The notes beneath the pieces were generated by a model. The model saw only the letters and a list, made by a program, of their open reading frames with translations, had not been told where the DNA came from and did not search any database. Shown here one piece after another: positions 1,970-28,251 of a stretch of DNA of 32,000 nucleotides. The translations under genes were made by a program, and so were the position numbers. The stretch spans positions 1,980,001 to 2,012,000 of the forward strand of contig NZ_CP088239.1 of the NCBI RefSeq assembly GCF_021054785.1, written 5' to 3'. Positions within the stretch are counted from its first letter, which is position 1. Each line of letters opens with the position of its first letter. The DNA is from Tannockella kyphosi. GTDB lineage: Bacteria; Bacillota_I; Bacilli_A; Erysipelotrichales; Coprobacillaceae.

Positions 1970-1971
1970 AA

Positions 1972-2214: not shown

Positions 2215-2237
2215 GGTTCTTCCTCCTAGATAAGATG

Positions 2238-2266: not shown

Positions 2267-2268
2267 TA

Positions 2269-2694: not shown

Positions 2695-2706
2695 TATTTC
2701 TCCCTC

Positions 2707-3939: not shown

Positions 3940-3949
3940 TATCCTTCTC

Positions 3950-6671: not shown

Positions 6672-6672
6672 C

Positions 6673-7605: not shown

Positions 7606-7614
7606 CTTTTCTCC

Positions 7615-9933: not shown

Positions 9934-9935
9934 TG

Positions 9936-10802: not shown

Positions 10803-12157
10803 TATTCATCCACCAAACTATCTAAATGAGCCTCTATAAATCCCGTATCAAAATTACCTTTGACATACTCATTATGATGTAAAATCATATATTGTAATTC
10901 TTGATTGGTATCAATTCCATCAATAACTAATTCAGATAATACTCGACGCATTCTTCTAATTGCCTCTAAACGATTGGTTCCATGAACAATCACTTTAGCA
11001 ACCATCGAATCATAGTGTGGCGATACAAGATATCCTTGATAGAGTGTCGTATCAATACGAACACCTAAACCACCTGGTAAATGTACTCCCTTTACTAGCC
11101 CCGGGCTAGGACGGAAGTTTTCACTAGGTTTTTCTGCATTAATACGACACTCAATTGCATGTCCTTGTAACATAACATTTGCTTGTTTCAACCCTAATCG
11201 TTGTCCTGCTGCAATTCGTATTTGTTCTCGGATTAAATCAACCCCTGTTACCATTTCTGTTACAGGATGTTCCACTTGAATTCTTGTATTCATTTCAATG
11301 AAATAATAATTCCCTTCACTATCTAAAACATACTCTATCGTTCCAGCATTGGTATAACCGGCACCTTTGGCAGCACGGACTGCATCATTCCCCATCTTTT
11401 CTCGCAAACTAGCTGTTAATGCTTTACTAGGAGACTCTTCAATCATTTTTTGATTTCTTCTTTGTATCGAACAATCTCTTTCTCCCAAATGAATTACATT
11501 CCCATAAGTATCTGCTAAAATTTGAAATTCTATATGCTTTGGATTTAAAATCAATTTTTCTAAATACATCGCATCATCATTGAAACAAGCTTTTGCTTCT
11601 GCTTTTGCAGTAGCAAAGGCTTGTTCAAATTCTTCTGGAGAGAATGCTTTTCGCATCCCTCTTCCTCCACCACCAGCAGAAGCTTTAATTAAAATAGGAT
11701 AACCTATTTTCATTGCGACATCTTTTGCTTCTTGCACATCCTTTACAATTCCTTGACTCCCTGGTACTACTGGTACCCCTGCCTCTATCATAATTTGACG
11801 AGCCATTGCTTTATTCCCCATCTTATCAATGACACTTCCTTTAGGACCTATAAACTTCATTCCACATTCTTCTACTAATCTTGCAAATTGCGCATTCTCC
11901 GATAAAAAGCCAAACCCTGGATGAATTGCATCACAATGTAAACTAGTAGCAGCTGCTAAGATATTTTGAATATTTAAATAACTCTCACTTGCTTTTGAAG
12001 AACCTATACATATGGCATGATCTGCAAGTTTCACATGCAAAGAAGATGCATCCACATCGGAATAAATCGCAACAGCCTCAATCCCTAACTCTTTACAAGT
12101 ACGAATAATACGAACCGCTATCTCTCCTCGATTTGCGATTAATATTCTTTTAAACAT
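10802..12157 (-). CDS. accC: Biotin carboxylase
   Basis: ATP-grasp motifs are present (ILIANRGEIAVRI, GGGGRGMR, EMNTRIQVEHPVTE). I placed the start at the ATG at 12157 (MFKRILIANRGE), which has a GAGG 7 nt upstream. The ORF-track start at 12163 has no RBS spacing. Confidence 0.93.
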   Translation of the reverse strand: MFKRILIANRGEIAVRIIRTCKELGIEAVAIYSDVDASSLHVKLADHAICIGSSKASESYLNIQNILAAATSLHCDAIHPGFGFLSENAQFARLVEECGMKFIGPKGSVIDKMGNKAMARQIMIEAGVPVVPGSQGIVKDVQEAKDVAMKIGYPILIKASAGGGGRGMRKAFSPEEFEQAFATAKAEAKACFNDDAMYLEKLILNPKHIEFQILADTYGNVIHLGERDCSIQRRNQKMIEESPSKALTASLREKMGNDAVRAAKGAGYTNAGTIEYVLDSEGNYYFIEMNTRIQVEHPVTEMVTGVDLIREQIRIAAGQRLGLKQANVMLQGHAIECRINAEKPSENFRPSPGLVKGVHLPGGLGVRIDTTLYQGYLVSPHYDSMVAKVIVHGTNRLEAIRRMRRVLSELVIDGIDTNQELQYMILHHNEYVKGNFDTGFIEAHLDSLVDE

Positions 12158-12578
12158 AATCATCCTCTAACAACATAATAGCTTGGTCGTATTCTACTAC
12201 CTCACTATCCTTTATCAATATCTTTGAAACAATACCATCTTGAGGAGCTTTTATTTCATTCATTACTTTCATCGCTTCAATAATACAAATAACTTGTCCT
12301 GCTTTAACACTTTGTCCCACTTCTACAAAAGCTTTTGCATCAGGTGAACTAGCACTATAGAATACCCCCACAATTGGAGACTTTACTTCTGTTCCTTTGA
12401 AAACATCTTCTACCACTTTCATTTCTTTTGTTTCTTGAATGACTGGTTGTTTTACTATTTCTTGAACTATCGTTGCTTTTTCTAGTTCTAATTTGATATC
12501 TTCTATTTCTATTTTCATTTTAGCTACAGATGAGCTTTCAAATTGTTCGAATAAATCTTTTACTAAGTCTAGTTTCAT
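12150..12578 (-). CDS. accB: Biotin carboxyl carrier protein
   Basis: 142 aa with the biotinyl-lysine motif IIEAMKVMNEI. Confidence 0.93.
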   Translation of the reverse strand: MKLDLVKDLFEQFESSSVAKMKIEIEDIKLELEKATIVQEIVKQPVIQETKEMKVVEDVFKGTEVKSPIVGVFYSASSPDAKAFVEVGQSVKAGQVICIIEAMKVMNEIKAPQDGIVSKILIKDSEVVEYDQAIMLLEDDYV

Positions 12579-14514: not shown

Positions 14515-15537
14515 TTATCTAGTCATTTCACTAGTATCATTTGTATCTTGATGAGAAGCAATAATAGCTTCGATTTCATTTAATTCTAAAGCTTGCATAT
14601 CACCAGGAATTGTATTTTTTACAGCTCCTGTTGCATTCCCGAATTCTAATGCTTTTTGGCAATCTCCATCATATTTAATTAGTCCATAAAGAGCTCCAGA
14701 AATATAAGCATCTCCACTACCAATACGATCAACTACTTCAATATTAGCGTAATCATCTTCTTTGTAGTATGTATCTTTCAAAGCGTCATAGAATACAGAT
14801 CCAAAGGTATGTACTTTTGGACTATGTACGATTCTAGTAGTTGAGGCTACATAAGAGATAGGATATTCTTCTGTAAAGCTTTTCATAATTTGTTCTAAAG
14901 TACCTTCTTTTAAGAAAGTTAATTGTGCTGTACTTTCTGAACAGAAGAACATGTCTACATAAGGAAGAATTTCTTCAATGTATTGTTTTGCTTGTGGTCC
15001 TGTCCATAAGTTACTTCTAAAGTTAACATCAAAAGATATTTTAGCTCCAGCAGCTTTGAATTTTTTTATTAGTTCTTTTGTTAGGTCACGAACTTCTGGT
15101 GTTAGGGCTAATGTGATTCCTGTTGTATGGAACCATTTTGTAGAAGTGAACATTTCTTCTGGGAAATCTTCTAACTTCACTTTTAACATCGAAGAATGTT
15201 TACGATCATAGACAACTCTAGGTTTTCTAGGATATGCTCCATTTTCATAGTAATAAAGTCCTAATCTAGCATCTGATTCATTGTCATACGCTAAATATTC
15301 ATCACTTATTCCTACTCCACGCATTTTATTTCTTGAAAATATACCAATATCATTTCCTGGTACTTTAGAAATAATTCCTGTTTTTAAACCTAATAATGCT
15401 ATTCCACTTAGTACATTTAATTCTGCACCACCAACTTGTTTTTCTAAAAAATCACCACGAGTTAACTTTTCATTTGTAGGAGGAGAAAGTCTCATTAAGA
15501 CTTCTCCTAAAGATAATACATCATATTTCTTTTCCAT
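14515..15537 (-). CDS. kdgK: PfkB-family sugar kinase, 2-dehydro-3-deoxygluconokinase-like
   Basis: 340 aa with ribokinase-fold motifs (GGAELNV, DRIGSGDAYISG, GAVKNTIPGD). It is adjacent to eda. Confidence 0.8.
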   Translation of the reverse strand: MEKKYDVLSLGEVLMRLSPPTNEKLTRGDFLEKQVGGAELNVLSGIALLGLKTGIISKVPGNDIGIFSRNKMRGVGISDEYLAYDNESDARLGLYYYENGAYPRKPRVVYDRKHSSMLKVKLEDFPEEMFTSTKWFHTTGITLALTPEVRDLTKELIKKFKAAGAKISFDVNFRSNLWTGPQAKQYIEEILPYVDMFFCSESTAQLTFLKEGTLEQIMKSFTEEYPISYVASTTRIVHSPKVHTFGSVFYDALKDTYYKEDDYANIEVVDRIGSGDAYISGALYGLIKYDGDCQKALEFGNATGAVKNTIPGDMQALELNEIEAIIASHQDTNDTSEMTR

Positions 15538-15546
15538 GATATTCTC

Positions 15547-16506
15547 CTATTTTTGAATTAAATGAATTGCAAATCCTGCAACTTCATGTTTGAAATAAAT
15601 AGTAATTAGTTTGTCTCCATTATATAAAGCAGCATCCATATTAAACTCAAAACCTTGGTTTTCTAAATATGCTTTTGCACGATTTGCATCATTTGTAGCA
15701 ATCGCAATATGTCCTTTTGTTCCTAAATAAGGGCTTTTCATTGCTTCAATCGCACTACCTGCAAAATAAGAAGCTTTCTTTTCTGTTGCAGTAAATCCAA
15801 ACATTGCCTCAAACATTTTTACTGTTTGTTTTGCTTGATCATCATTTTCACAGTTAATCCCTACATGACGTAATTCAAAACCAAACATCGTCATTAAGGC
15901 TTCTTTTGTAAGTCTTGTGATTTCATCAAATTTACCAGCTTTTACTAAGTCTCCACTTACCATCCAGCTTCCACCACAACATAAGATTTTATTAAACGCT
16001 AAATATTCATTTACATTATTAGGATTGATTCCACCTGTCGGCATGAATTTCATATTTGTATAGGCTGCAGCCATTGATTTAATCATATTTAATCCTCCAG
16101 CAGCTTCTGCTGGGAAGAATTTTACAGTATCTAAACCTAATTCAATTGCTTGTTCTACTTGACTAGGACTAGTAACACCAGGTGTTACAGGGATTCCTTT
16201 TTCTACACAGTATTGAACCACTTTTGGGTTTAATCCTGGACTTACAATAAATTTTGCTCCTGCTGCCACTGCAATATCCACTTGTTCTACTGTTAAAATA
16301 GTACCTGCTCCAATTAACATGTCAGGATATTCTGTTGCCATAATACGAGTTGCTTCCACTGCTGCTTCTGTACGGAAAGTAATTTCTGCACAAGGTAACC
16401 CTCCATCGCATAATGCTTTTGCAAGAGGTGCTGCATCTTTTACATCATCTATTACGACTACTGGTACAATTCCGATTTGTTGTAATCTAGTTAACACTTC
16501 GTTCAT
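15547..16506 (-). CDS. eda: KDPG/KHG aldolase (Eda) fused to a C-terminal glyoxalase/VOC-like domain of about 105 aa
   Basis: Residues 1 to about 210 carry Eda motifs (CAEITFRT; the Schiff-base lysine context DTVKFFPAEAAGG; PTGGINP). Residues from about 212 to 319 (FELRHVGINCEND...GHIAIATNDANRAKAYLENQGFEF...FAIHLIQK) look like a single VOC module. Confidence 0.8.
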   Translation of the reverse strand: MNEVLTRLQQIGIVPVVVIDDVKDAAPLAKALCDGGLPCAEITFRTEAAVEATRIMATEYPDMLIGAGTILTVEQVDIAVAAGAKFIVSPGLNPKVVQYCVEKGIPVTPGVTSPSQVEQAIELGLDTVKFFPAEAAGGLNMIKSMAAAYTNMKFMPTGGINPNNVNEYLAFNKILCCGGSWMVSGDLVKAGKFDEITRLTKEALMTMFGFELRHVGINCENDDQAKQTVKMFEAMFGFTATEKKASYFAGSAIEAMKSPYLGTKGHIAIATNDANRAKAYLENQGFEFNMDAALYNGDKLITIYFKHEVAGFAIHLIQK

Positions 16507-16522
16507 TTGTCTTCTCCTTGAC

Positions 16523-16861
16523 CTATTTCTTTAAAAAGTCTTCTCTTTGTGGTGTGAAAATATCTAAAAGAACTGTGTCTTCTAAACATACACATCCATG
16601 TAATGATTCAATTGGCATAAATACAGAGTCTCCACCTTTAATAATTTGTTTCTCTCCATTTACTTCAAACTCTAAACATCCACTGATACAATAAGATACT
16701 TGTTCATGAATATGGTGATGTAAATCTCCAATAGCACCTTTTTGAAAATGTACTTCCACAATCATCATATCTCCACCACGAGCTACAATTTTTCTTTTAA
16801 TTAAGTCATTCACTTGTTCAAATTCAATTTCTTCATTAATAAAATAATAATCTCTGTTCAT
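16523..16861 (-). CDS. kdgF: Small single-domain cupin, KdgF-like (unsaturated uronate linearisation)
   Basis: 112 aa counted from the ATG at 16861, which has an AAGGAG RBS. Cupin motifs are GDLHHHIHEQVSYCISG and GDSVFMPIESLHG. The context is lyase, SDR, kdgK and eda. Confidence 0.65.
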   Translation of the reverse strand: MNRDYYFINEEIEFEQVNDLIKRKIVARGGDMMIVEVHFQKGAIGDLHHHIHEQVSYCISGCLEFEVNGEKQIIKGGDSVFMPIESLHGCVCLEDTVLLDIFTPQREDFLKK

Positions 16862-16871
16862 CTTATTCTCC

Positions 16872-18752
16872 TTATTTTTCAATTTCCCATACAGCATTAA
16901 ATGTAGCTGTTTTATTTTTTGTTCTTAAAATAATCGCTGTTCTAAATCTAGATACTGGATTATCATAAGTTTGTGCCATAAATACATCTTTATCTTTTGT
17001 ATCAATGATAGAAGTTAATGTTACTTTTCCTAATTTCCATTGTAATCTTAATTCATCACTACTTACTACTTTACGGACATCTTTTAAATGTTCATATCCA
17101 AATGCATCATATTCAATCTTTGCAGGAGTAGATGCTACTTCTGTTAATAATGTTGCTTCACTATGGAAAATCCAATCTAATTGATGTTCTTCTTTTGATT
17201 CTACTCCAAAACTATCTGTAAATCCATGATCACTAATTTCTACACGTCTTTGATAATCAACACCTTCATAAACATCTTCTACTAAAGAATGACAGATTGT
17301 ATCATTAAATTCAACAATTTTTCCACCTTCTGTAGAAACATGATTTTTCCCATCTACTAATACCGTATTATGAGATAATGAATGTCTATGCCATTCATTA
17401 CAAAGCTTTGATCCATAACCTGTATTTGATAAATCTCTTGATAATGATAATCCTTCTACCATTACTTCAATATTCATTTTATCAGGATGAGCATGAGAAG
17501 GTCCTCTATGACCATATTTCATAAAGACATTTATATGATCATTTTTAAGCATTCCAAAATATGAATTTTCAAAACAAGTAGAAGTTCTTTTGATTTCACT
17601 ACGATTGTTTATATCTAAATCTGGTAAACAAGACATACGTTCAAAACTAATTTCATTGTTATAATAGAAAGGTTTTGATAATGGGAACTCGACTCTTTCA
17701 CTTGGATTTGCACAAATATTTTTATAAATATTTCCTACTTCACTATCTTCTCCAAATACTTTAGTAGCTAAACAGTAAATATATTCATATGATTTTAATG
17801 TTACATTTGGCCATCCATCATTTGGATTTGGTAAGATATCGTTATCAAATGCATAATGATAAGCACGGATTAACATTTCTTCTACTAATCCTTTTGATGC
17901 GAATTCTTGTCCATGTAACTGAGCAAATGCCATTAAGTCTACTACACCTTCTAATAAGAAGAAGTTATAATGAATTGATCCTTCATACCAGAATTTATCT
18001 CCTGTAACACCTTGTTTTAATTGTTCATTAATACCAAATTCACCTTTGAATACTAAATCAATAAATGATTGATTTTGTGTATATAAACCAATAACACCTA
18101 CTGCTGCATTTAACCAACAAGGGATGTTATGAATATGTGTGATTTGAGGAATTAAGATATCAGTAATCGGAATAAATAAGTTTTTATTTAAACCTTCTAA
18201 GAATTCTTCTTCTAATTCACCTTTTAATAATTCTAAAGAAATAATAATACGAATAGCAACAATTGCTTCATTTAATCCTTGAGGCATTAAACGAGCTGCT
18301 CCACCAACATCAACTGTTAAACCACTTTCATCTACAATTTTATCTTTGGCATGTAATGCGAATTCTACATAATGATCAGAATAGAAACCTAAGATTTTTT
18401 TATATTCTGTTAAATATTTAGAATCTTTTTCAACACGATATAATGTCGCTAATTTCATTAATGTTAAAATTGCTGTATTACGGTAAAAATATCTCCATAC
18501 ATTATCAAATGTTTTATTTTGATATACTGTATGACATAATTGACAAACATGTTCATGTGGTTTATCTAAATCAAAGATCAGTCTTTCTCCATCTTCAGGA
18601 CAGAAATAATTATGTCCCCATTCACTTAAATATTCAGGTGAATCATGAAATTCATTACAAAACTTTTCTGCTTCTTTTTTCATTGATTCTAACATTTCCA
18701 TATATTTAGGATTCGTTGTTAGAATTTGTTCATTTATATCAAATATTTTCAT
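16872..18752 (-). CDS. Heparinase II/III-fold polysaccharide/oligo-uronate lyase A, cytoplasmic (no signal peptide)
   Basis: 626 aa. The C-terminal Hepar_II_III signature is GHRGPSHAHPDKMNIEV...HNTVLVDGKNH. The N-terminal half reads as helical, with WYEGSIHYNFF. There is an unusual FCPEDG...HEHVCQLCH cluster. The N-terminus MKIFDINEQIL is not hydrophobic. Confidence 0.7.
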   Translation of the reverse strand: MKIFDINEQILTTNPKYMEMLESMKKEAEKFCNEFHDSPEYLSEWGHNYFCPEDGERLIFDLDKPHEHVCQLCHTVYQNKTFDNVWRYFYRNTAILTLMKLATLYRVEKDSKYLTEYKKILGFYSDHYVEFALHAKDKIVDESGLTVDVGGAARLMPQGLNEAIVAIRIIISLELLKGELEEEFLEGLNKNLFIPITDILIPQITHIHNIPCWLNAAVGVIGLYTQNQSFIDLVFKGEFGINEQLKQGVTGDKFWYEGSIHYNFFLLEGVVDLMAFAQLHGQEFASKGLVEEMLIRAYHYAFDNDILPNPNDGWPNVTLKSYEYIYCLATKVFGEDSEVGNIYKNICANPSERVEFPLSKPFYYNNEISFERMSCLPDLDINNRSEIKRTSTCFENSYFGMLKNDHINVFMKYGHRGPSHAHPDKMNIEVMVEGLSLSRDLSNTGYGSKLCNEWHRHSLSHNTVLVDGKNHVSTEGGKIVEFNDTICHSLVEDVYEGVDYQRRVEISDHGFTDSFGVESKEEHQLDWIFHSEATLLTEVASTPAKIEYDAFGYEHLKDVRKVVSSDELRLQWKLGKVTLTSIIDTKDKDVFMAQTYDNPVSRFRTAIILRTKNKTATFNAVWEIEK

Positions 18753-18761
18753 TTATTGCTC

Positions 18762-20159
18762 CTATTCGAACACTACTTGTTCTTCTTTTATTTCTATACT
18801 TTTATTTTTCTCTATTCTACCATCAATGATTGTCTTTTTCATGAACAAATACAAACCAATTGAAAATAGTCCACTTAATATATTACTTACCAACATTGCA
18901 TACCAAATACCATATTCACCAATCCCCCAAATAGGTTGAGAGAAAATAATAACAACTGGTACTCTAAACACATAAATTCTCATTAAACTAACAAATAAAT
19001 TAAACTTTGTATCCCCTGTTCCTTGGAAAATACCCATTGCACATTCTGTCATTCCCCAGGGAATAATAGATGCACTATAGATACCCATTGCATTAATAAT
19101 ATGTTGATACGTTGGATCACTAGTATCCACAAATAATGCTGCAATCGATGATCTAAATGGCAGTAAGAATGCTATAAAAATAATAGCTAACGTTAATCCA
19201 AAACCTAAGGATTTCCATACTGCTTTTTTAACACGTTCTGGTTGGTTTGCACCCATGTTTTGAGCTACAATTACCGATAAACCTGTACCAAATGCGGTTA
19301 CAGCTTTAAAGAAAACAGAGTTTACTTTGTTTGTGATTCCATAAGCTGCTAAAACTGGTTCTCCAAAAGCAAGTACATACTTGTTAATAATTATAAAACC
19401 CATTGATATTAATGATTTTTCAAATATTAATGGTAATGCTGTTACTAATAATATTTTAGTTGAAATAGAGTTTATTTTGTATTCACTTATTTCTAATTTT
19501 CTTTCATTTTTCTTAGAGAAAAAACTAATTAAACAAGTAGTAGCACAAATTCCTTGTGCTAATATTGTTGCTAGTCCAATCCCTGTAATTTCCCAATTTA
19601 CTACAATCGTAAATAGGTAACAGAAAATGATTTTCATTATTAAAGAAAACATATTAATAGATATTGCTTTCTTTGTATTTCCTTGAGCTCTTTCAATTGC
19701 GAGATAAAGAACAGTAATAAAATTAAATACTACACCCCATGCTGTTAACATCAAATAACGACTTGAATCAGCTAATAAAGTATCTGTAATACCTGCTAAA
19801 AGTAATACTTCATTTGAAAAAACAAATGTTACGGCACTTATTATAAACCCAATCGTTACTCCAATGACAAATACATGGCCAATCATTCTACGTGCTTTTT
19901 GTTCATCATTAGCACCAATATAACGTGCTATTAAACTACACCCAGCTACCGATAGACCTGTTGCTACTGCATTTAATGTATCCTGAATAGGTCCTACAAA
20001 GGCAACACTTGCTACTGCTAAACTACCTACATTCGCAACAAAAAGACTATCTATAATACCATACATACCCTCTACCATATTGGTAATGATAATTGGTAAA
20101 GTTATCATCCAGATAACTGCGTCTAGTCTACCATTTAATATATTTACTTTCTCTTTCAA
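18762..20159 (-). CDS. MATE-family efflux transporter
   Basis: 465 aa with about 12 TM segments and a typical MATE N-terminus (ITLPIIITNMVEGMYGIIDSLFV). It starts at a TTG, preceded by AGGAGAGGGG. Confidence 0.85.
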   Translation of the reverse strand: MKEKVNILNGRLDAVIWMITLPIIITNMVEGMYGIIDSLFVANVGSLAVASVAFVGPIQDTLNAVATGLSVAGCSLIARYIGANDEQKARRMIGHVFVIGVTIGFIISAVTFVFSNEVLLLAGITDTLLADSSRYLMLTAWGVVFNFITVLYLAIERAQGNTKKAISINMFSLIMKIIFCYLFTIVVNWEITGIGLATILAQGICATTCLISFFSKKNERKLEISEYKINSISTKILLVTALPLIFEKSLISMGFIIINKYVLAFGEPVLAAYGITNKVNSVFFKAVTAFGTGLSVIVAQNMGANQPERVKKAVWKSLGFGLTLAIIFIAFLLPFRSSIAALFVDTSDPTYQHIINAMGIYSASIIPWGMTECAMGIFQGTGDTKFNLFVSLMRIYVFRVPVVIIFSQPIWGIGEYGIWYAMLVSNILSGLFSIGLYLFMKKTIIDGRIEKNKSIEIKEEQVVFE

Positions 20160-20209
20160 GATTTTCCCCTCTCCTAAACAATTTTTTATAAATCGCTCAC
20201 TTTAAATAG

Positions 20210-20246
20210 TATAGTAGGTAAGCGAGGAATTCATTTACCTACTATA
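20210..20246. promoter_or_regulatory. 12-bp perfect inverted repeat (tatagtaggtaa-N13-ttacctactata) in the SDR-MATE intergenic region
   Basis: Read directly from the sequence. It lies about 50 nt upstream of the MATE start and is not followed by a U-tract on either strand. Confidence 0.4.
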
Positions 20247-20272
20247 TGTGTAAAATTACTAATTCATTTATT

Positions 20273-20344
20273 AAAAAAACTGGAAATTTATTTTCTTTTC
20301 GTTTTCCTTGCGGAATTCACAAATGAAAACTTCCTTTCCAGTTT
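20273..20344 (-). terminator. Long irregular hairpin plus U7 downstream of the SDR gene (probable terminator or attenuator)
   Basis: On the minus strand, AAACTGGAAA...TTTCCAGTTT forms a 10-bp outer stem and GTTTTC/GAAAAC an inner stem, followed by TTTTTTT. Confidence 0.5.
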
Positions 20345-20356
20345 GTTTAAATCTTC

Positions 20357-21109
20357 TTATAAGAAGTCTTGTCCACCATTAACTTGGATAATTTCTCCTG
20401 TTAAGAAAGAAGCTTTTTCACTACATAAGAATGAAATTACTGATGCTACTTCTTCAGGTTGACCAAAACGTTTCATTAAGATATTGTTTTTCCAAGATTC
20501 AAATACTTGAGGATTTGTTTTCTTAATGTTGTCATGGAATGGAGTATCGATAGTTCCTGGGCTTACTGCGTTAGAACGGATACCGTATTCTGCTAAATCT
20601 TTTGCAAATGCTCTTGTTAAAGTAACGATTGCTGCTTTACTTACACCATAGATACCAGCTCCTGGACCACCTGCATTCCATGCAGCATTTGATGCAAAGT
20701 TAACGATTGAAGCATTTTCACTTTTCTTTAAGAAAGGAATTGCTGCTCTTGTTACGAAGAATGCGCTATCTACATTTAATGCCATTACATTACGGTAGAA
20801 ATCAGTAGTCATTTCTTCAAAACGAGAACGTCCTCCAAGTCCACCAGCGTTGTTTACAACAACGTCGATAACTCCGTATTTTTCACCAATTGCAGCTACA
20901 CTTGATGCTACTGCAGCTTCGTTTGTTACGTCAAAGTTAACGTACTCACATTCTGCTCCTACTTCTTTTAATGATGCAATTGCAGTTGCTGCTTGTGCGT
21001 CATCAATTCCGTTAATTACTACTGTATAACCATCTTTTGCTAATGCTGTTGCAGTTGCTAAACCAATACCACCTGTTGCTCCTGTAACTAATGCTACTTT
21101 TTTACTCAT
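20357..21109 (-). CDS. SDR-family oxidoreductase, DEH-reductase/KduD-like (4-deoxy-L-erythro-5-hexoseulose uronate to KDG)
   Basis: 250 aa with TGATGGIG, NNAGGLGGRSRFEEM, GGPGAGIYGVSKAA and SPGTIDTPFH. These motifs resemble what I recall of the Sphingomonas A1-R DEH reductase; I have not verified this. The gene is co-operonic with a lyase. Confidence 0.65.
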   Translation of the reverse strand: MSKKVALVTGATGGIGLATATALAKDGYTVVINGIDDAQAATAIASLKEVGAECEYVNFDVTNEAAVASSVAAIGEKYGVIDVVVNNAGGLGGRSRFEEMTTDFYRNVMALNVDSAFFVTRAAIPFLKKSENASIVNFASNAAWNAGGPGAGIYGVSKAAIVTLTRAFAKDLAEYGIRSNAVSPGTIDTPFHDNIKKTNPQVFESWKNNILMKRFGQPEEVASVISFLCSEKASFLTGEIIQVNGGQDFL

Positions 21110-21129
21110 TTTAATTTCTCCTTTTATTT

Positions 21130-23121
21130 TTAAATTTCAAATGTTGTTTCTGTTTGACCATCATGTATGATTACATACATACTGGCGTTACTTGTGATAC
21201 CATATTGTTCAAATCCTTCTCTAGCAATACATTCATATTGCTTTTTAGCATGGATTGTTACTTTATGGTGATCTTGTACTACTTTTATATTTGCAGGAAC
21301 AAAGCATTCAAACATAACTGCTTTTTTGCAGGCTTGCTTTGTTTCAAAATATAACGATTTAATTTCTACTCTACATACTTTGTCAGGCTCTTGTGTTGTC
21401 ATTACTCCGACAACATCTTGATCGTATTGTTTTTCTGTTATTTCTACATCACTATGGATAACATACCCTAATTGCTTATTGTTTAATGCATAAGTATAAG
21501 CATTTTCAAAGTTCTTTGTTGCATGATTGTTTGTATTTGAGATAACTGAGAACTTATGGTCCTCTTCACTTACAAAACGGTCTAAGAATACCATGAATTC
21601 TAAATCATCACTAAAGACTGTTCTACTAACTTCTGTCATTTTTGCAGCTTCTTTATAGATTTTAGTTGTATCTCCATAGTACCCAACCATATCATCTTGA
21701 TGAACATAATTCATTACATCACCACGATATTCATTAACAATATCAAAGTCAGGGTTTTGTGCTAATCTAGCTTTTGCTGAATCAACATAAACATCATTAC
21801 AATCAAATACATCTGTGTATTGACCATCTACTAATAACACATTGTGATTGTCAGGCATAATATTTCTATTATAACCATCTTCACATGTTAAGAATTCACT
21901 TCCTTCAACATAGATATAAGCTAAGTTATCAGGATGATGATGTGATAATGATAAACAATCAATATTTTCTTTATAATACAATTCCCAAGCTTTATCCCAT
22001 TGTTTTTTACCACCAGGAGCGCTACATTTAATTGTAAATACTTTTCCATCACGATCCCAAGTATTACGCATACTTAGTAATCCTAAATCTGGGAAATATT
22101 TTACTTTTGGTAACTCTGCTAAAGGTTTTGCTTCTACTTTTGGGCTAAACCATAAGAATTCAAATACTGCTTCTGGTAAAATACCAGGCTTCACTTTACT
22201 ATTATTTGCTTCTATTTCTAAGAATTCATCTAAAACAATATTCGCAAATGTTTGTGCATACCCGTTATTGTACTCTGCAGCCACTTTATAATAAACACAA
22301 GCTGTATGTCCACTATGGCGATCATGTGCATCTCCATAGTTTAATTGCTGTGCTAGATCTGGTGCTGATTGATATAAACGATAATCGAATGTATTTCTTA
22401 AATACTCACTTGTTTCGAAGTAATTAATACCTTCTTGTACATTTAATAAGTGAGCATATACAAATAACCACATTCCACCATAACGCCAATAAACAACACC
22501 TTCATAATTAGAACCATCTTCTGGCATATATTCATATACTCTTTTAAAGTTTTCTTTGGCACTATCAATATATACTTGTCCATTTAAGCCATCTGCTTGT
22601 AATACATAACCAGCAGTAGCTAATCCATTTAAGTTGATCCAGTTATGGTTTTGATAGTATTGTGTTGCCCATCCTTCACCAGCTGTTTCTTCTTTGTAGT
22701 CATACATGATTTTTGCATGATGTTCTATTTTATTTGTGATTGTTTCTCTTAGTTCTTGATCTAAGTCTGCTTTTAACCAATCATAACCAAGTGATAATCC
22801 AAATAAAATCCAAGAAGCACTTAAATCTACATTTACTAAATGAGCGAATCCCCATTTTTCATAATTCAATACAGTATTAATAAATCTTTTTGCTTCCTTT
22901 AAATATTTATCTTCTTTTGTTAAGTTATACGCTAATGCTAAGTTTACAATTGCAATCCCCATATAAGTAGTACTTCCATCTGGATGTACTTCTGGTAATT
23001 CAAAAGTCGCATAACGATTTGCTTCTTCTAGAAGACGATTTAATTGTTCTTTCCTTTCATTGTGGGCTTGAGCCTTAAATGGCTCTAAGTCCCCAATGAA
23101 CACATAATTTGTTTTTTGCAT
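21130..23121 (-). CDS. Heparinase II/III-fold polysaccharide/oligo-uronate lyase B, cytoplasmic (no signal peptide)
   Basis: 663 aa. The alpha/alpha-toroid-type N-terminal half carries YYQNHNW and YEGVVYWRYG. The C-terminal signature is SLSHHHPDNLAYIYVEG...NHNVLLVDGQ. The N-terminus MQKTNYVFIGD is not a leader peptide. Confidence 0.7.
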   Translation of the reverse strand: MQKTNYVFIGDLEPFKAQAHNERKEQLNRLLEEANRYATFELPEVHPDGSTTYMGIAIVNLALAYNLTKEDKYLKEAKRFINTVLNYEKWGFAHLVNVDLSASWILFGLSLGYDWLKADLDQELRETITNKIEHHAKIMYDYKEETAGEGWATQYYQNHNWINLNGLATAGYVLQADGLNGQVYIDSAKENFKRVYEYMPEDGSNYEGVVYWRYGGMWLFVYAHLLNVQEGINYFETSEYLRNTFDYRLYQSAPDLAQQLNYGDAHDRHSGHTACVYYKVAAEYNNGYAQTFANIVLDEFLEIEANNSKVKPGILPEAVFEFLWFSPKVEAKPLAELPKVKYFPDLGLLSMRNTWDRDGKVFTIKCSAPGGKKQWDKAWELYYKENIDCLSLSHHHPDNLAYIYVEGSEFLTCEDGYNRNIMPDNHNVLLVDGQYTDVFDCNDVYVDSAKARLAQNPDFDIVNEYRGDVMNYVHQDDMVGYYGDTTKIYKEAAKMTEVSRTVFSDDLEFMVFLDRFVSEEDHKFSVISNTNNHATKNFENAYTYALNNKQLGYVIHSDVEITEKQYDQDVVGVMTTQEPDKVCRVEIKSLYFETKQACKKAVMFECFVPANIKVVQDHHKVTIHAKKQYECIAREGFEQYGITSNASMYVIIHDGQTETTFEI

Positions 23122-23139
23122 TTATAATTCCTCGTTTTT

Positions 23140-24891
23140 TTACGCTATTTTTGTCTTTTTCGCTGTCCAATATAATCCGATACCTGCTAATAATACGACT
23201 GCTCCTACTGCTACAAATACAAATCTACTTGCAAATTCATTTGGTATAAATACCATGAATGATATTGCTAATCCTGCTGCTATTAATAATCCACCTAATG
23301 TTTTTCTTTGTCTACAATCAGATTCAACTACTTTAGGATCCTCTTCATTTACAATTACTGGTGTTGCAATATTTGTAAAGAATAAGTCAACTTCTTTTTG
23401 TCTTTCTGGAGTAAACCCTTTAAAGAATAACATCGTGATAAAGAAGAATGGTGTTGTAATACATCCATGTAATACAATAGGTATCGTAAGAGAAGCCATA
23501 TCACTATATTCTGCTGCTGTTAGTGAAATACCCATAAATGCACTTACCATATCAATATTACAAATAAATGCGATAAAGTATGATACTGCCATACCTACTA
23601 CTAATGTTGCCCATCCAGCCCAGTCTGGTGTTTTCTTAACAAAGAATCCTAATACTGTTGGAATCATCATTGGCATTGCCAATAAAGAACCAACCATTAC
23701 TGTTGCATTAAATAAGCTTGTATTTTCTAAACTATTAATAAATATTCCTACTGCAATAATGATTGCACCAAATAATAACGTCATTGCTTTTCCAAGTTTT
23801 AACATTGATTCATCAGATGCATCTTTATTAATAAATACTTTATAAACACTACGTACAAAGATAGCTGAATTTTTATTCAAAGCTGAATCCATTGATGACA
23901 TCGTTGCTGCAAACATAGCCGACATCATTAACCCAACCATTCCTACTGGCATAAAGTCACGAACAAATACATAATATGTTGCATCCGTAATACTACTTCC
24001 TAATGCATCTAATCCCCATGCTGCTGTATCAGGACTAAATGCTGCCATAAACCAAGAAGGAACAAACCATAACAATGGTCCTACTGTCATTAATGCACAA
24101 GCTAATAAAGCAGCCTTTCTAGCATTTTTAGTATCTTTAGCACAAATATAACGATAAGATCCAATCATGTTATTAGTAGAAATAAATTGTTTTACAAAAG
24201 AACATAAAACCCATGCCCAAAATAACCACATATAATTATAATCAGAACCTGTTACTATTTTTTCTGGTAATCCTTGTGCAAAAATAACACTAAGTCCACC
24301 AGCTTTTACTACTGCTACAACAGTTGCTACAACTGATACCGCCATAATGATAACCATTTGTAAGAAGTCAGAAGCTACTACAGCCCAAGCTCCTCCACTA
24401 ACAGACATTAAAACTACGATTAATCCTGTAATTACTATTGTTATATTCATTTCTACATTGAATACTGCTGCTGCAAATATCGCTAACCCATTTAACCAAA
24501 TACCTGCTTGAATGATATTAATAGGTAGTGAAGCTAACGTAAAAGCTTGCTCATTTACTTTACCAAATCTCATTCTAACTCCATCAATTGGAGTTGTTAC
24601 ACGCATCTGTCTTGATTTTGCTGCAAAGAATAAATAGTTTCCAAAATAACCAACTGCATTACCAAAGAAAATAGCTGTTACTGCAAAACCATCTGTAAAA
24701 CCTTTTCCGGCTGCACCTGTAAAAGTCCAAGCACTAAACTGAGTCATAAAGGCTGTGGCACCTACCATCCACCACAACATTTTTCCTCCACCTTTAAAAT
24801 AATCACTTGTTGAATTAGAGAAAGTTCTAAAAATCCAACCTATCGCCATTAAAAATACGAAATACACACATACAACTAGAATATCTATCAT
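23140..24891 (-). CDS. Sodium:solute symporter (SSS) family transporter, paralog B
   Basis: 583 aa with about 13-14 TM segments and an SSS-type N-terminus (SDYFKGGGKMLWWMVGATAFMTQFSAWTFTGAAGK). Confidence 0.8.
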   Translation of the reverse strand: MIDILVVCVYFVFLMAIGWIFRTFSNSTSDYFKGGGKMLWWMVGATAFMTQFSAWTFTGAAGKGFTDGFAVTAIFFGNAVGYFGNYLFFAAKSRQMRVTTPIDGVRMRFGKVNEQAFTLASLPINIIQAGIWLNGLAIFAAAVFNVEMNITIVITGLIVVLMSVSGGAWAVVASDFLQMVIIMAVSVVATVVAVVKAGGLSVIFAQGLPEKIVTGSDYNYMWLFWAWVLCSFVKQFISTNNMIGSYRYICAKDTKNARKAALLACALMTVGPLLWFVPSWFMAAFSPDTAAWGLDALGSSITDATYYVFVRDFMPVGMVGLMMSAMFAATMSSMDSALNKNSAIFVRSVYKVFINKDASDESMLKLGKAMTLLFGAIIIAVGIFINSLENTSLFNATVMVGSLLAMPMMIPTVLGFFVKKTPDWAGWATLVVGMAVSYFIAFICNIDMVSAFMGISLTAAEYSDMASLTIPIVLHGCITTPFFFITMLFFKGFTPERQKEVDLFFTNIATPVIVNEEDPKVVESDCRQRKTLGGLLIAAGLAISFMVFIPNEFASRFVFVAVGAVVLLAGIGLYWTAKKTKIA

Positions 24892-24918
24892 GATATTTCC
24901 TCCCTATATTTTCTTATT

Positions 24919-24941
24919 CGTTCACATATAAGAACTTGGTT
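24919..24941 (-). promoter_or_regulatory. Composite operator O2 of symporter B (GTTC-N8-GAAC-N4-GTTT)
   Basis: The plus strand reads gttcacatataagaacttggttt. It ends 27 nt upstream of the start codon. Confidence 0.55.
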
Positions 24942-24996
24942 TTGTTGTTGGTACAAAAAATAATTGCTGTTTGTCGTTGTATTGATAATACGCTAG

Positions 24997-25063
24997 GTTT
25001 ATATATATAAACTAAGTTTATTAATTACACATAGAGTATATTCAATCTTGTTTTGTTTGTCAA
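24997..25063 (-). promoter_or_regulatory. Symporter B promoter (TTGACA-17-TATACT, 25035-25063) plus operator O1 (24997-25019)
   Basis: The minus strand reads cTTGACAaacaaaacaagattgaaTATACTctatgtgtaattaatAAACTTAGTTTATATATATAAAC. Confidence 0.55.
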
Positions 25064-25129
25064 TGAGTTTCCAATTATTTCATGTACAATTCATTGATTT
25101 CATCGTGCTTTTTACTTCATTTTTATTTA

Positions 25130-25158
25130 ACATATTAGGAGCTATGCTCCCAATATGT
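25130..25158 (-). other. 13-bp stem hairpin just after the symporter A stop codon (weak terminator or mRNA-processing/stability element)
   Basis: The stem is acatattaggagc-tat-gctcccaatatgt. The single mismatch becomes a G-U pair only in the minus-strand RNA. On the minus strand the hairpin is followed by UUAAAUAAAAA rather than a U-run. Confidence 0.45.
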
Positions 25159-25169
25159 TTTTTTATTTT

Positions 25170-26924
25170 TTAAACATGTTTTTTAGAGTTTTTAGCAGAA
25201 ATAATTAATCCCATTCCAGCTACGAATACTACTACTCCTACTGCTACAAATACAAATCTACTTGCAAACTCATTTGGTATAAAGAACATACACGTTATAG
25301 CAACCCCTGCTGTAGCTAATAATCCGCCTAATGTTTTTCTTTGTCTACAATCAGATTCAATTACTTCTGGATCTTCTTCATCTACAACTACTGGCGTATT
25401 TGTATTTTCGAAGAATAAATCAACTTCTTTTTGACGTTCTGGAGAATATCCTTTAAAGAATAATTGACTTAATAAGAAGAATGGTGTTGTAATACATCCA
25501 TGTAATACTACTCCTAAAGTAAGAGAAGACATATCACTATACTCTGCTGCAGTTAAAGGTATACCAATTACTGCACTTACCATATCTGCATTACATACAA
25601 ATGCAATAAAGTAAGATACTGCCATACCTACTACTAATGTTCCCCATCCAGCCCAATCAGGTGTTTTCTTAATAAAGAATCCTAATAAAGATGGAATTAA
25701 CATTGGTAAAGCTAATAAAGAACCAACCATTGTTGTAACATTAAATAAACTAGTATTTTCTAAACTATTAATAAATATCCCTACTGCAATAATAGTAATA
25801 CCAAATAATAAAGTCATTACTTTTCCTAATTTCAACATATGTTCATCTGATGCATTTTCATTAATAAATACTTTATATACATTACGTACAATAATACCAG
25901 CATTTTTATTTAATGCTGAATCCATTGATGACATAGTTGCCGCAAACATAGCCGACATCATTAACCCAACCATTCCGACTGGCATAAAGTCACGAACAAA
26001 TACATAATATGTTGCATCTGTAATACTACTTCCTAATGCTTCTAATCCCCATGTTGCTGTATCAGGATTAAATGCTGCTACAAACCAAGCTGGTACAAAC
26101 CATAACAAAGGTCCTACAAACATTAAAGTACATGCTAGTAATGCTGCTTTTTTTGCATTTTTTGTATCTTTTGCACACATATAACGATAAGAATCAATCA
26201 TATTGTTTGTTGATAAGAATTGTTTTACAAAAGAACATAATACCCATGCCCAGAATAACCACATATAGTTATAATCTGATCCTGTTACAATTCCTGCTGG
26301 TAAACCTTCTGCAAAAATAACACTAATTCCACCTGCTTTAATAACTGCAACTACTGTTGCTACTACTGATACTGCCATAATGATAACCATCTGTAAGAAG
26401 TCAGAAGCTACTACCGCCCAAGCTCCACCTGTTACTGACATTAATACTACAATTGCACCAGTGATAACGATTGTTATATTCATTTCTACATTGAATACTG
26501 CTGCTGCAAACACTGCTAAACCATTTAGCCAAATACCAGCTTGAATAATACTAATTGGTAATGACGCTAATGTGAAAGCTTGTTCATTTACTTTACCATA
26601 ACGTAAACGAATTCCTTCAATTGGAGTAACCACTCGAAGTTGTCTTGACTTCGCTGCAAAGAATAAATAATTTCCTAAATAACCTACTGCATTTCCAAAG
26701 AAAATTGCTAATACAGCAAATCCATCTGTAAATGCTTTTCCTGCTGCACCTGTAAAAGTCCAAGCACTAAATTGTGTCATAAACGCTGTAGCACCTACCA
26801 TCCACCACAACATCTTTCCACCACCTTTGAAATAGTCACTAGTTGAACTTGAGAAAGTTCGAAAAATCCAACCAATTGCCATTAAAAAGACAAAATAAAC
26901 GCATACTACTAGAATATCAATCAC
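25170..26924 (-). CDS. Sodium:solute symporter (SSS) family transporter, paralog A
   Basis: About 85 percent aa identity to paralog B by eye. I placed the start at the GTG at 26924 (VIDILVVCVYF, aligning with MIDILVVCVYF of paralog B), which has an AGGAGG 7 nt upstream. The 18-codon ORF-track extension to 26978 is not conserved. Confidence 0.8.
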   Translation of the reverse strand: MIDILVVCVYFVFLMAIGWIFRTFSSSTSDYFKGGGKMLWWMVGATAFMTQFSAWTFTGAAGKAFTDGFAVLAIFFGNAVGYLGNYLFFAAKSRQLRVVTPIEGIRLRYGKVNEQAFTLASLPISIIQAGIWLNGLAVFAAAVFNVEMNITIVITGAIVVLMSVTGGAWAVVASDFLQMVIIMAVSVVATVVAVIKAGGISVIFAEGLPAGIVTGSDYNYMWLFWAWVLCSFVKQFLSTNNMIDSYRYMCAKDTKNAKKAALLACTLMFVGPLLWFVPAWFVAAFNPDTATWGLEALGSSITDATYYVFVRDFMPVGMVGLMMSAMFAATMSSMDSALNKNAGIIVRNVYKVFINENASDEHMLKLGKVMTLLFGITIIAVGIFINSLENTSLFNVTTMVGSLLALPMLIPSLLGFFIKKTPDWAGWGTLVVGMAVSYFIAFVCNADMVSAVIGIPLTAAEYSDMSSLTLGVVLHGCITTPFFLLSQLFFKGYSPERQKEVDLFFENTNTPVVVDEEDPEVIESDCRQRKTLGGLLATAGVAITCMFFIPNEFASRFVFVAVGVVVFVAGMGLIISAKNSKKHV

Positions 26925-26986
26925 GATAATTCCTCCTAAATTTTCTTTTCTACCATTGAAATCAAAAGACATTCTCATTGTCTATA

Positions 26987-27009
26987 ATTCATATATATGA
27001 ACTAAGTTT
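26987..27009 (-). promoter_or_regulatory. Composite operator O2 of symporter A
   Basis: The plus strand reads attcatatatatgaactaagttt. It lies 63 nt upstream of the GTG start. Confidence 0.55.
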
Positions 27010-27139
27010 TACAATGTCTACAAAAAATAAATTATTGAATGAATACTTACTGCCATAAGTATTCTATTGAATAATCTTTTGATCCCGTTTCTTAAACTTT
27101 ATACACCGGTATGTATCAGTTAAACGTTGATGATAAATT

Positions 27140-27206
27140 GTTCACATATACGAACCTGGTTTATCATTTACAACTAAAGTATAGTATGTCCTTTTTCTTT
27201 TGTCAA
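27140..27206 (-). promoter_or_regulatory. Symporter A promoter (TTGACA-17-TATACT, 27178-27206) plus operator O1 (27140-27162)
   Basis: The minus strand reads aTTGACAaaagaaaaaggacatacTATACTttagttgtaaatgatAAACCAGGTTCGTATATGTGAAC. Confidence 0.55.
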
Positions 27207-27372
27207 TGAGTTATAGTTACTTTTGTGCACTTTTTCTCAAGGGATTTTTTTATAACCGTTTTCAATATCCTATTTTTCTTTATATTATATGTATTTTTTG
27301 ACTTTTTTATGAACCTTTATTTTTTAAATTTTTTTTCATTCATTTATACAATATATCGTATTTTCCTATACA

Positions 27373-27428
27373 AAAATGTAAGGACTTACATTTTAGATAA
27401 AATAAAAACTAGAAGTGTTCTAGTTTTT
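27373..27428. terminator. Two tandem hairpins downstream of the IclR gene (terminators)
   Basis: The first is aaaaactagaa-gtg-ttctagttttt (27404-27428), which overlaps the iclR stop and is followed by a U-rich tail on the minus strand. The second is aaaatgtaag-ga-cttacatttt (27373-27394). Confidence 0.7.
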
Positions 27429-28176
27429 ATCCTCTGTACCCTAATGATTTCGATACATTATTCGCTATTAATTGTAATTCATTTGCCATTGCTTCATTGT
27501 CCATTTTCTCGTTATATACATCAGAAAGTGAAAGCGCCACGACTACTTTTCCAGTATAGTCAAATACTGGTACACCACAACAACTAGAAATACTACGATC
27601 TTCTTGCATCTCTATTGCATACCCTCTTTGTCTAGTAATATCTAATTCTTTGATCAATTTTTCTTTATCATTAATCGTATGTTCTGTTAAATGTTTAAAT
27701 TCAATTTTATCAAGGATAACTTGTCTTTCTTTTTCTGGTAAAAACGCTAAAATAGCTTTTCCACTAGCAGTTGCATAGACATCTTTTCTAGCACCTAACG
27801 CACATGTTGCAAGCACTGCTTTAGGGGCAACATATTTACCCATGAAAACTAAATCTGTTCCATCTAAAATACTTACAAATGCTGTTTTATCATATTTATC
27901 AGCAATTGGTTTTAAACCTGCAAGACACTGATCTACGACATCTAACCCATTATAATATTTCATACCTAATGAAAAAGCTTTTACACCTAAACAGTATTTC
28001 TTTTCATTATAAGGCATTGTTCTTACGTAATTTAATTCATGCAATGACTGCACTATTACAAAGACACTACTTTTAGGATATCCGAATTCATTGACGATAT
28101 CTTGTAATGTTACTCCTTCTTTTTTTTCACTAATATATTCTAGTATTTGCATGCTTCTAAATATTGTATTATTCAT
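27427..28176 (-). CDS. IclR-family transcriptional regulator (KdgR-like by context)
   Basis: 249 aa with an N-terminal wHTH (FRSMQILEYISEKKEGVTLQDIVNEFGYPKSSVFVIVQSLHELNYV) and a C-terminal IclR effector domain. Confidence 0.85.
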   Translation of the reverse strand: MNNTIFRSMQILEYISEKKEGVTLQDIVNEFGYPKSSVFVIVQSLHELNYVRTMPYNEKKYCLGVKAFSLGMKYYNGLDVVDQCLAGLKPIADKYDKTAFVSILDGTDLVFMGKYVAPKAVLATCALGARKDVYATASGKAILAFLPEKERQVILDKIEFKHLTEHTINDKEKLIKELDITRQRGYAIEMQEDRSISSCCGVPVFDYTGKVVVALSLSDVYNEKMDNEAMANELQLIANNVSKSLGYRG

Positions 28177-28190
28177 CTTAACCTCCCAAT

Positions 28191-28251
28191 AAACTTAGTT
28201 CATAAATAAGAACTCCTATGTTATTGTATGTCTTTAAGGGCGGAAAGTCAA
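28191..28251 (-). promoter_or_regulatory. iclR promoter (TTGACT-17-TACAAT, 28223-28251) with one composite operator downstream of the -10 (28191-28213)
   Basis: The plus strand at 28191 reads aaacttagttcataaataagaac. It is the same 23-bp motif as at the symporter genes, but inverted relative to the direction of transcription. Confidence 0.55.

Follow-up and report, generated by a model that had tools for sequence, protein, structure and literature searches.

The closest described counterparts of the genes treated here are systems for alginate. [quoted passage not shown] In the Firmicute Bacillus weihaiensis Alg07, a leaderless PL15 oligoalginate lyase, the DEH reductase DehR and a "pectin degradation protein" are induced by kelp and the enzymes are active. 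The lyase converts oligoalginate to monosaccharides, DehR acts on DEH, and the route runs from DEH through 2-keto-3-deoxygluconate (KDG) to KDPG (2-keto-3-deoxy-6-phosphogluconate) (PMC5128808). We compared these systems with an island of genes at positions 14515–28176 of a 32,000-nucleotide stretch of Tannockella kyphosi DNA (contig NZ_CP088239.1, positions 1,980,001 to 2,012,000; the whole stretch is referred to as the window). The island is most probably a Firmicute-type alginate-oligosaccharide utilisation locus. An earlier note on this DNA, made from the sequence alone, had found no substrate that could be assigned. Alginate oligosaccharides are indicated by five kinds of evidence, and the substrate is therefore assigned as such: the folds of two lyases, family profiles, synteny, transporter homology, and the diet and metatranscriptomics of the host.

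A six-frame listing of open reading frames (ORFs) resolved the island into ten co-oriented genes, all on the minus strand. In order of transcription they are:

27427–28176, minus strand: iclR, IclR-family regulator (KdgR-like), 249 aa (Pfam HTH_IclR and IclR_C)
25170–26978, minus strand: SSS symporter 1 (SSS1); probable true start 26924, 584 aa (Pfam SSF, 1.5e-34)
23140–24891, minus strand: SSS symporter 2 (SSS2), 583 aa, predicted Na+-coupled alginate-oligosaccharide importer (Pfam SSF and homology)
21130–23121, minus strand: lyase B, 663 aa, PL15/DSE-like leaderless exolyase, predicted oligoalginate lyase (Pfam DSE-like_N, 51.3 bits)
20357–21109, minus strand: short-chain dehydrogenase/reductase (SDR), 250 aa, predicted DEH reductase (DehR) (closest solved structures: DEH reductases)
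18762–20159, minus strand: multidrug and toxic compound extrusion (MATE) transporter, 465 aa, TTG start (Pfam MatE, 5e-53)
16872–18752, minus strand: lyase A, 626 aa, leaderless lyase remotely of PL17 type, Cys/Asp/His/Cys/Cys cluster in its N-terminal part (Pfam Hepar_II_III_C)
16523–16897, minus strand: KdgF-type cupin; probable start 16861 (Met13), 112 aa (PDB sequence matches and adjacency to lyase A homologues)
15547–16506, minus strand: Eda (KDPG aldolase) fused to a C-terminal domain of about 115 aa resembling the vicinal oxygen chelate (VOC) fold (Pfam Aldolase, 5.6e-72)
14515–15537, minus strand: PfkB-family kinase, predicted KDG kinase (KdgK) (Pfam PfkB, 1.9e-30)

The Pfam matches over the island are IclR, two SSF, DUF4962/DSE-like_N, SDR, MatE, Hepar_II_III_C, Cupin_2, KDPG aldolase and PfkB. 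A set of co-oriented uronate-catabolic genes had been proposed here before, and that description stands; its count of eleven does not, and its own list also names ten. Two ORFs were probably called too long. The SSS1 start at 26978 has no ribosome-binding site, and the NCBI protein has 584 aa; homologues of the cupin are 106–120 aa long, and a start at Met13 in place of 16897 removes a 26-nt overlap with lyase A. T. kyphosi proteins (2.26-Mb contig) match lyase A and the two symporters with 100% identity.

Both lyase ORFs have an in-frame stop codon directly upstream. Neither protein has a hydrophobic N-terminus (maximum Kyte-Doolittle 12-mer 0.28 and 0.47) or a transmembrane-like segment, and by this heuristic both are therefore leaderless, as had been noted. 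The two had also been described as unrelated apart from a C-terminal signature. Pairwise this is so: in BLASTP they align only over SHxHPD...HNxL(L)VDG, with E = 0.08. Profile–profile comparison, in contrast, gave E = 3.4e-5 over 384 columns, and the structural models of both match the same set of lyase folds. By profile and model, lyases A and B are distant homologues.

PF16332 (DSE-like_N) scored 51.3 bits in lyase B against a cut-off of 28.7, and orthologues also score for PF07940. The lyase B profile matched dermatan-sulfate epimerase 1 (DSE1) at 1.6e-31, the PL15 enzyme Atu3025 at 5.5e-26, PL35 at 7e-15 and PL39 Dp0100 at 2e-7. When the AlphaFold2 (AF2) model (pLDDT 92.3) was submitted to Foldseek, DSE1 was found with a TM-score of 0.78 and Atu3025 with 0.71 (E = 1e-26), followed by PL35 lyases of glycosaminoglycans (GAGases), the PL15_2 exo-heparinase and PL39. 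The catalytic residues of PL15, His311, Tyr365 and His531 in Atu3025 numbering (PMC11921355), correspond to His159, Tyr211 and His394 of lyase B, each conserved in 34 of 34 homologues. Lyase B is 16–18% identical to Atu3025 (3A0O) and human DSE1 (6HZN), and shares with them the fold and the His/Tyr/His catalytic set. It lacks about 150 N-terminal residues of Atu3025 (663 against 776 aa), the alignment opening at residue 211 of Atu3025 and residue 56 of lyase B. The N-terminal beta-sheet domain, which separates subfamily PL15_1 from PL15_3 (PMC11921355), is absent from lyase B. Membership of PL39 was considered and rejected, as Dp0100 matches lyase B only at the level given above and lyase A not at all by sequence.

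The single lyase A sequence matched PL17 alginate lyases only weakly. A profile of 40 homologues matched the PL17 enzymes AlyA3 (7BJT) at 7.5e-33, AlgL17 (9IRQ) at 1.4e-30 and Alg17c (4NEI) at 6e-24, with PL17 matches ranging to 1.4e-19. Strong matches were confined to this family, the next being PL40 (ulvan lyase Uly1040, 6e-8) and heparinase III (6e-7). The AF2 model of lyase A (pLDDT 92.3) has the two-domain fold of PL17, made up of a toroid of (alpha/alpha)6 type plus an antiparallel beta-sandwich. Its top ten Foldseek matches in the PDB were all PL17 (TM-score 0.74–0.77, 15–16% identity, E about 1e-27), and other lyase families scored 1e-19 or worse. Lyase A falls outside the NCBIfam equivalog olalg_lyase, scoring 25 bits against a cut-off of 1400; the profile shows remote homology.

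The Alg17c residues named in PMC8600288 were transferred to lyase A by hidden Markov model (HMM) alignment, and conservation was counted over the 40 homologues. In Alg17c, Tyr258 is the acid, Tyr450 the base, and Asn201 and His202 are charge-neutralising (PMC8600288). Asn201 corresponds to lyase A Asn209 (40/40), and the interdomain metal ligands His415, Asp433 and His464 correspond to His422, Asp440 and His461, each likewise invariant in all 40. The counterpart of His200, His208, is conserved. The loop carrying Tyr450 is shorter in lyase A, with the invariant Tyr446 as the candidate equivalent.

Lyase A also differs from the PL17 lyases in having no signal peptide and an extra N-terminal segment of about 90 residues. 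This segment, which lies outside the PL17-aligned region, contains a Cys/His cluster that had been reported previously with a spacer of 17 residues. The cluster is real, with the sequence FCPEDG-x10-HEHVCQLCH (Gly55 to His66), so that the spacer is ten residues long. It is not peculiar to this protein: Cys51, Cys70 and Cys73 are present in all 40 homologues, and Asp54 and His68 in 39. In the AF2 model the cluster sits on two short beta-hairpins (residues 57–59 and 68–70). Cys51, Asp54, His68, Cys70 and Cys73 probably form a structural zinc site. The family of lyase A, in which the Cys/Asp/His/Cys/Cys cluster is conserved and His is missing at the position of PL17 His202, is modestly new.

Several loci of Firmicutes and Mollicutes share a core made up of lyase B, lyase A, cupin, SDR, MATE and IclR:

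L003, Defluviitalea phaphyphila Alg1 (JWID01000004.1): core conserved
L004, Clostridium grantii (alginolytic, like D. phaphyphila): core conserved
L005, a Lachnospiraceae metagenome-assembled genome (MAG): core conserved
L006, Epulopiscium: core conserved
L007, Acholeplasma granularum: core, with a PF05426 (PL5-type) alginate-lyase gene inside the cluster
L008 and L009, Lacrimispora-type gut contigs: core conserved
L010, a gut-metagenome contig: core, followed by a PL7-type alginate lyase gene

The iclR gene itself is found in L003, L004, L005, L008 and L010. The earlier note had implied that the architecture is new. This is not supported, given the published precedents in B. weihaiensis and Vibrio. 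D. phaphyphila grows on alginate and kelp (PMC4818487; PMC8286568). Its locus resembles that of T. kyphosi in having co-oriented genes for IclR, lyase B (41% identity), lyase A (49%), cupin, SDR (65%) and MATE (38%). It differs in that an ATP-binding cassette (ABC) transporter, with a lipoprotein binding protein of 671 aa and four small membrane proteins, takes the place of the SSS symporters of T. kyphosi, and in having no Eda or KdgK in the cluster; a separate LacI-KduI-KduD unit lies downstream. An ABC transporter is present in all the related loci L003–L010, whereas T. kyphosi has two tandem SSS genes together with attached KdgK and Eda. The T. kyphosi locus has an SSS importer in place of the ABC importer of Firmicute alginate loci.

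In the ABC-type loci, four small (about 135–180 aa) multi-pass membrane proteins without a Pfam match flank the gene for a MalK-type ATPase (L003, 6966–7944 and 9058–9983; the same pattern in L007, L008 and L010). These loci also encode a lipoprotein-like binding protein of 560–700 aa, and both features are absent from T. kyphosi. Directly downstream of the L010 cluster, at 15816–19781, is a gene for a 1321-aa protein with PF08787 (Alginate_lyase2, PL7-type) and Big_2 domains. L010 suggests that complete alginate loci occur in gut Lachnospiraceae.

Clusters II/III of B. weihaiensis (Bw800-807 plus KdgK and KDPG aldolase) likewise bring together, in a Firmicute, an importer, a leaderless heparinase II/III-fold lyase, DehR and a KdgF-type protein. 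The likeness of the B. weihaiensis lyase to lyases A and B is one of published description. B. weihaiensis has an ABC transporter and a two-component regulator where T. kyphosi has SSS symporters and IclR. It has one functional lyase in the cluster, with KdgK and Eda in a separate cluster, against two lyases and attached KdgK and Eda in T. kyphosi. The cytoplasmic logic proposed in the earlier note is the published model. The Vibrio system differs from T. kyphosi in its Gram-negative host, its porin step, its secreted PL6/PL7 lyases and its canonical PL15 and PL17 enzymes; its regulators belong to several families (LysR, GntR, IclR, KdgR).

SSS1 and SSS2 are 85% identical, and SSS1 has about ten transmembrane-like segments. 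Homologues were found in the Lachnospiraceae MAG (78% identity, on the same contig as L005), in Epulopiscium (69%), in Clostridium sediminicola (63%, two copies) and in many Vibrio species (51–54%, figures that do not refer to ToaA, ToaB, ToaC or the C42 SSS protein themselves). The Vibrio ToaABC transporters are SSS proteins, and Vibrio sp. C42 was severely impaired in its growth on alginate once its SSS gene had been deleted; the protein bound unsaturated oligomers (PMC13390454). Import of oligoalginate by SSS proteins is therefore an already known mode. In Vibrio sp. E150_018 the homologue (52% identity; locus L012, 10001–14610) lies two genes from a PL15-type gene. The gene order there is SSS homologue, hexapeptide-repeat protein and a 735-aa protein with DSE-like_N and Hepar_II_III_C domains, and a LysR gene lies divergently upstream.

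The remaining enzymes match a DEH pathway. The cupin matched PDB entry 7zyb at 8.5e-35 and the KdgF structures 5fpx and 5fq0 at 2.9e-27 and 4.5e-25, and contains the His/Glu motif GDLHHHIHEQ. Like YeKdgF and HaKdgF it is a small single-domain cupin encoded beside uronate lyase genes, and cupin genes adjoin the lyase A homologues in loci L003–L007. The SDR matched A1-R' (4tkl) best, at 1.2e-45, followed by 4w7i and A1-R (3afm); A1-R' and A1-R are DEH reductases of Sphingomonas sp. A1, which assimilates alginate. It is 56–68% identical to the SDRs of seven related loci, and is predicted to be a DEH reductase. The kinase scored 3e-67 with the NCBIfam KDG/KDGal kinase models, below the equivalog cut-off, and Eda scored 272 bits with NCBIfam eda, above its cut-off. 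The resemblance of the cupin to KdgF and of the SDR to DEH reductases supports the earlier proposal of oligomer import and wholly cytoplasmic exolysis followed by KdgF, a single SDR step, KdgK and Eda, of DEH rather than KduI/KduD type. The same proposal had pointed to the absence of GH88/GH105 enzymes, KduI, an ABC binding protein, a phosphotransferase system and a secreted endo-lyase, and none of these was found in the island or the rest of the 32-kb window. The KduI/KduD logic used for glycosaminoglycans (GAGs) or pectin was rejected for the island, as neither gene is in the window.

The host of T. kyphosi fits alginate, a polymer of brown algae, as the substrate. The species is an Erysipelotrichaceae isolate from the hindgut of Kyphosus sydneyanus, a kelp-eating fish that feeds on brown and red macroalgae (PMC11333855). 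In this gut, oligo-alginate lyase genes occur in many taxa, including a Bacilli MAG, and metatranscriptomics showed that carbohydrate-active enzyme (CAZyme) transcripts of Bacilli point mainly to alginate (PMC11333855). The presence of two different lyases in one locus may be set beside a passage in PMC12336832, which states that at least two oligoalginate lyases are usually needed.

Several observations weigh against this assignment. In lyase A the position of Alg17c His202 is occupied by Ile210 (Ile in 35 of the 40 homologues, Lys in five, never His), and the charge-neutralising pair of PL17 is not present as a pair. Two independent gapless alignments, one of them that of lyase A to lyase B, place the catalytic Tyr258 at His261, with the invariant Tyr262 one residue on. 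Because identity to PL17 structures is only about 16%, His202 is lacking and Tyr258 is ambiguous, the chemistry of lyase A may differ from that of PL17. The best single match of lyase B is human DSE1, which is not a lyase, and its close homologues occur in Lacrimispora saccharolytica-type gut bacteria, which are not known to be alginate users. The margin of the SDR over generic SDRs is small (1.2e-45 against 2.4e-44). We found no report of an assayed enzyme from this locus or its close homologues, and T. kyphosi is reported to use mannitol, no documented growth on alginate having been found. Some of these points could mean that only one of the pair is a lyase: lyase B might act on imported oligomers as a uronate C5-epimerase like DSE, converting G and M into each other, for example, or lyase A might be a non-canonical enzyme. 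We consider this very improbable. DSE1 does head both the profile and the structural matches of lyase B (1.6e-31; TM-score 0.78), but DSE and the lyases share the His/Tyr/His triad, and the top rank of DSE1 therefore does not argue for epimerase activity. The term DSE-like_N (formerly DUF4962) also occurs in a passage of the paper on the PL15 lyase AlyPB2 (PMC6827250), and KdgF and DehR need a lyase product. In lyase A, Ile210 and the His261 register speak for a non-canonical enzyme, but Tyr262, His208, Asn209 and the metal site do not vary, an argument that the active site is functional. A shift of one residue, in which His261 would correspond to Tyr257 and Tyr262 to the catalytic Tyr258, fits the replacement of His261 by Tyr or Phe in 2 of the 40 homologues. 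The H202A mutant of Alg17c is still partly active, and in the PL17-type fold His is thought to serve guluronate and Tyr mannuronate (PMC11921355). Since its members have no His at the 202 position, the lyase A family may be M-specific. A bolder proposal is that lyase A and its more than 500 homologues form a distinct PL17-related family or subfamily with a zinc-binding N-terminal module and a rearranged active site (no His202, and a His261–Tyr262 pair), which would carry out Tyr-only, mannuronate-specific exolysis or an undescribed chemistry, while MATE and the VOC-like domain of Eda might handle an overflow of reactive DEH. Taken as a whole this seems to us rather unlikely.

The same pathway could instead serve another uronate oligomer, either ulvan or glucuronan from green algae or host or dietary GAG fragments (heparosan, hyaluronan or chondroitin). 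Both lyase folds are common to GAG and ulvan lyases. Lyase A also matches the PL40 ulvan lyase Uly1040 (6e-8; TM-score 0.65) and the PL12 heparinase III. The PL35 GAGases and the PL15_2 exo-heparinase are among the matches of lyase B, homologues of which occur in non-marine gut Lachnospiraceae. Among lyases, the best matches of the two are nevertheless clearly PL17 and PL15 alginate enzymes, and DEH reductases are the nearest relatives of the SDR. The island and the window were found to lack sulfatases, genes for the catabolism of rhamnose or amino sugars, GH88/GH105 and KduI/KduD. Alginate lyase genes of PL7 or PL5 type are present in related loci, which are also found in alginolytic species in culture. 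We judge another uronate substrate to be improbable, and retain alginate oligosaccharides as the assignment.

On the alginate assignment, the locus would work as follows. Oligomers would be freed outside the cell by endo-lyases of other community members or of T. kyphosi genes outside the window, and the two tandem Na+/solute symporters, by homology, would import short and perhaps unsaturated alginate oligomers. In the cytoplasm lyases B (PL15-like; His159, Tyr211, His394) and A (PL17-like) would peel off 4,5-unsaturated monouronates, as their folds and residues suggest. Judged by their homologues, KdgF would turn the unsaturated monouronate into DEH, DehR would reduce DEH to KDG, KdgK would convert KDG to KDPG, and Eda would split KDPG into pyruvate and glyceraldehyde-3-phosphate. 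That T. kyphosi scavenges oligomers made by other organisms, as proposed earlier, is plausible; 32 kb do not settle the matter, as the 2.26-Mb genome could encode a secreted lyase outside the window.

This assignment gives a concrete substrate and pathway for a cultured member of the Kyphosus hindgut community hitherto known mainly for its use of mannitol. The assignment suggests a scavenger's use of alginate fragments by T. kyphosi, which may rely on primary degraders, for instance Alistipes and Clostridia. A widespread "heparinase II/III" pair of Firmicutes and Mollicutes, including human-gut Lachnospiraceae, is likewise placed in alginate-type loci. For enzymology, the divergent PL17-like family, in which the metal-binding cluster is conserved, is a reasonable target. 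The locus leaves the current understanding of uronate catabolism unchallenged.

The IclR regulator matched NCBIfam KdgR at E = 7.6e-35, with 120 bits against an equivalog cut-off of 275. Promoter-like sites and palindromes, the latter without strand, were found in the intergenic regions upstream of iclR and of both symporter genes:

28198–28213, palindrome: GTTCTTATTTATGAAC, candidate IclR operator at the iclR promoter (pattern search, 2 mismatches)
27178–27206, minus strand: promoter-like site TTGACA-17-TATACT upstream of SSS1 (11 of 12 consensus positions)
27140–27155, palindrome: GTTCGTATATGTGAAC, candidate operator O1 of SSS1, 23 nt downstream of the −10 hexamer (0 or 1 mismatch)
26987–27002, palindrome: GTTCATATATATGAAT, candidate operator O2 of SSS1 (pattern search)
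25035–25063, minus strand: promoter-like site TTGACA-17-TATACT upstream of SSS2 and the downstream catabolic genes (hexamers and alignment)
24997–25012, perfect palindrome: GTTTATATATATAAAC, candidate operator O1 of SSS2, 23 nt from the −10 hexamer (0 mismatches)
24920–24935, palindrome: GTTCTTATATGTGAAC, candidate operator O2 of SSS2 (pattern search)

The 16-bp palindrome GTTYRTATATRYRAAC stands between genes at five places: each SSS promoter has two copies downstream of it, and the iclR promoter has one. One further site is weak and intragenic. Twelve strand-matches were counted where chance would give 1.1, a number that none of the shuffled sequences attained. We take the palindrome as a candidate IclR operator; no exact match to it was found in 12 related loci. 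At iclR, a promoter-like site runs from 28251 to 28223 and the palindrome lies 10 nt downstream, implying autoregulation through this candidate operator. The IclR/KdgR-like regulator would repress the three promoters by way of GTTC-N8-GAAC palindromes just downstream of the −10 hexamers, and an inducer (KDG, DEH or an unsaturated oligomer) would relieve the repression. The SSS1 and SSS2 promoters have the same hexamers and spacing within a block conserved in the alignment of both upstream regions, and O1 lies at the same distance (23 nt) from the −10 hexamer in each. On the evidence of this alignment, duplication of the SSS gene took in the promoter and the two operator copies as well (24892–25169 and 26979–27426). 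This joint duplication and the candidate IclR operator palindrome are modestly new. Rfam and tRNA scans of the window gave no matches, and there is no riboswitch to account for the long 5′ leaders.

The favoured model leaves the roles of the MATE transporter and of the VOC-like domain of Eda unexplained. Nominally, MATE proteins serve efflux; that this one exports reactive DEH is a guess. Its identity to the MATE proteins of related loci is 64% in L005, 38% in L003 and 33% in L007. MATE genes are kept across the loci of Clostridia, Erysipelotrichia and Mollicutes at 21–64% identity (L003, 13179–14546; L005, 453–1829; L007, 14275–15633; L010, 1290–2684), with only a 68-aa remnant in C. grantii.

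The description of the aldolase as an Eda-VOC fusion is firm in its Eda part. The VOC part is weakly supported: Glyoxalase_4 matched the C-terminal domain at E = 0.002, below the Pfam cut-off, and the family profile matched methylmalonyl-CoA epimerase at E = 5e-4. As a whole the assignment is probable, and the arrangement is a common one. The C-terminal 115 residues (window 15550–15894) belong to a family of 832 cluster representatives, either fused to Eda in proteins of about 320 aa or free-standing (about 115–140 aa). His10, Glu50, His62 and His111 are conserved in this family, whose resemblance to VOC/glyoxalase proteins is weak.

The island is flanked on one side by a fab/acc cluster, bioY and birA, and on the other by marR, a xanthine/uracil permease gene, ssb and rpsF (SSB, S6). 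GC content is uniform at about 0.31 inside and outside the island, and no mobile-element genes were found in the window. Horizontal acquisition of the island was considered and is unsupported, given this composition, the lack of mobile-element genes and the housekeeping flanks. The region upstream of the island, at 199–12578, contains a complete cluster for type II fatty-acid synthesis and acetyl-CoA carboxylase, with genes for FabZ, FabF, FabG, FabD, two FabK-like NMO proteins, FabH, a MarR-type regulator, AccA, AccD, AccC and AccB. It is followed by bioY and then by the divergent birA.

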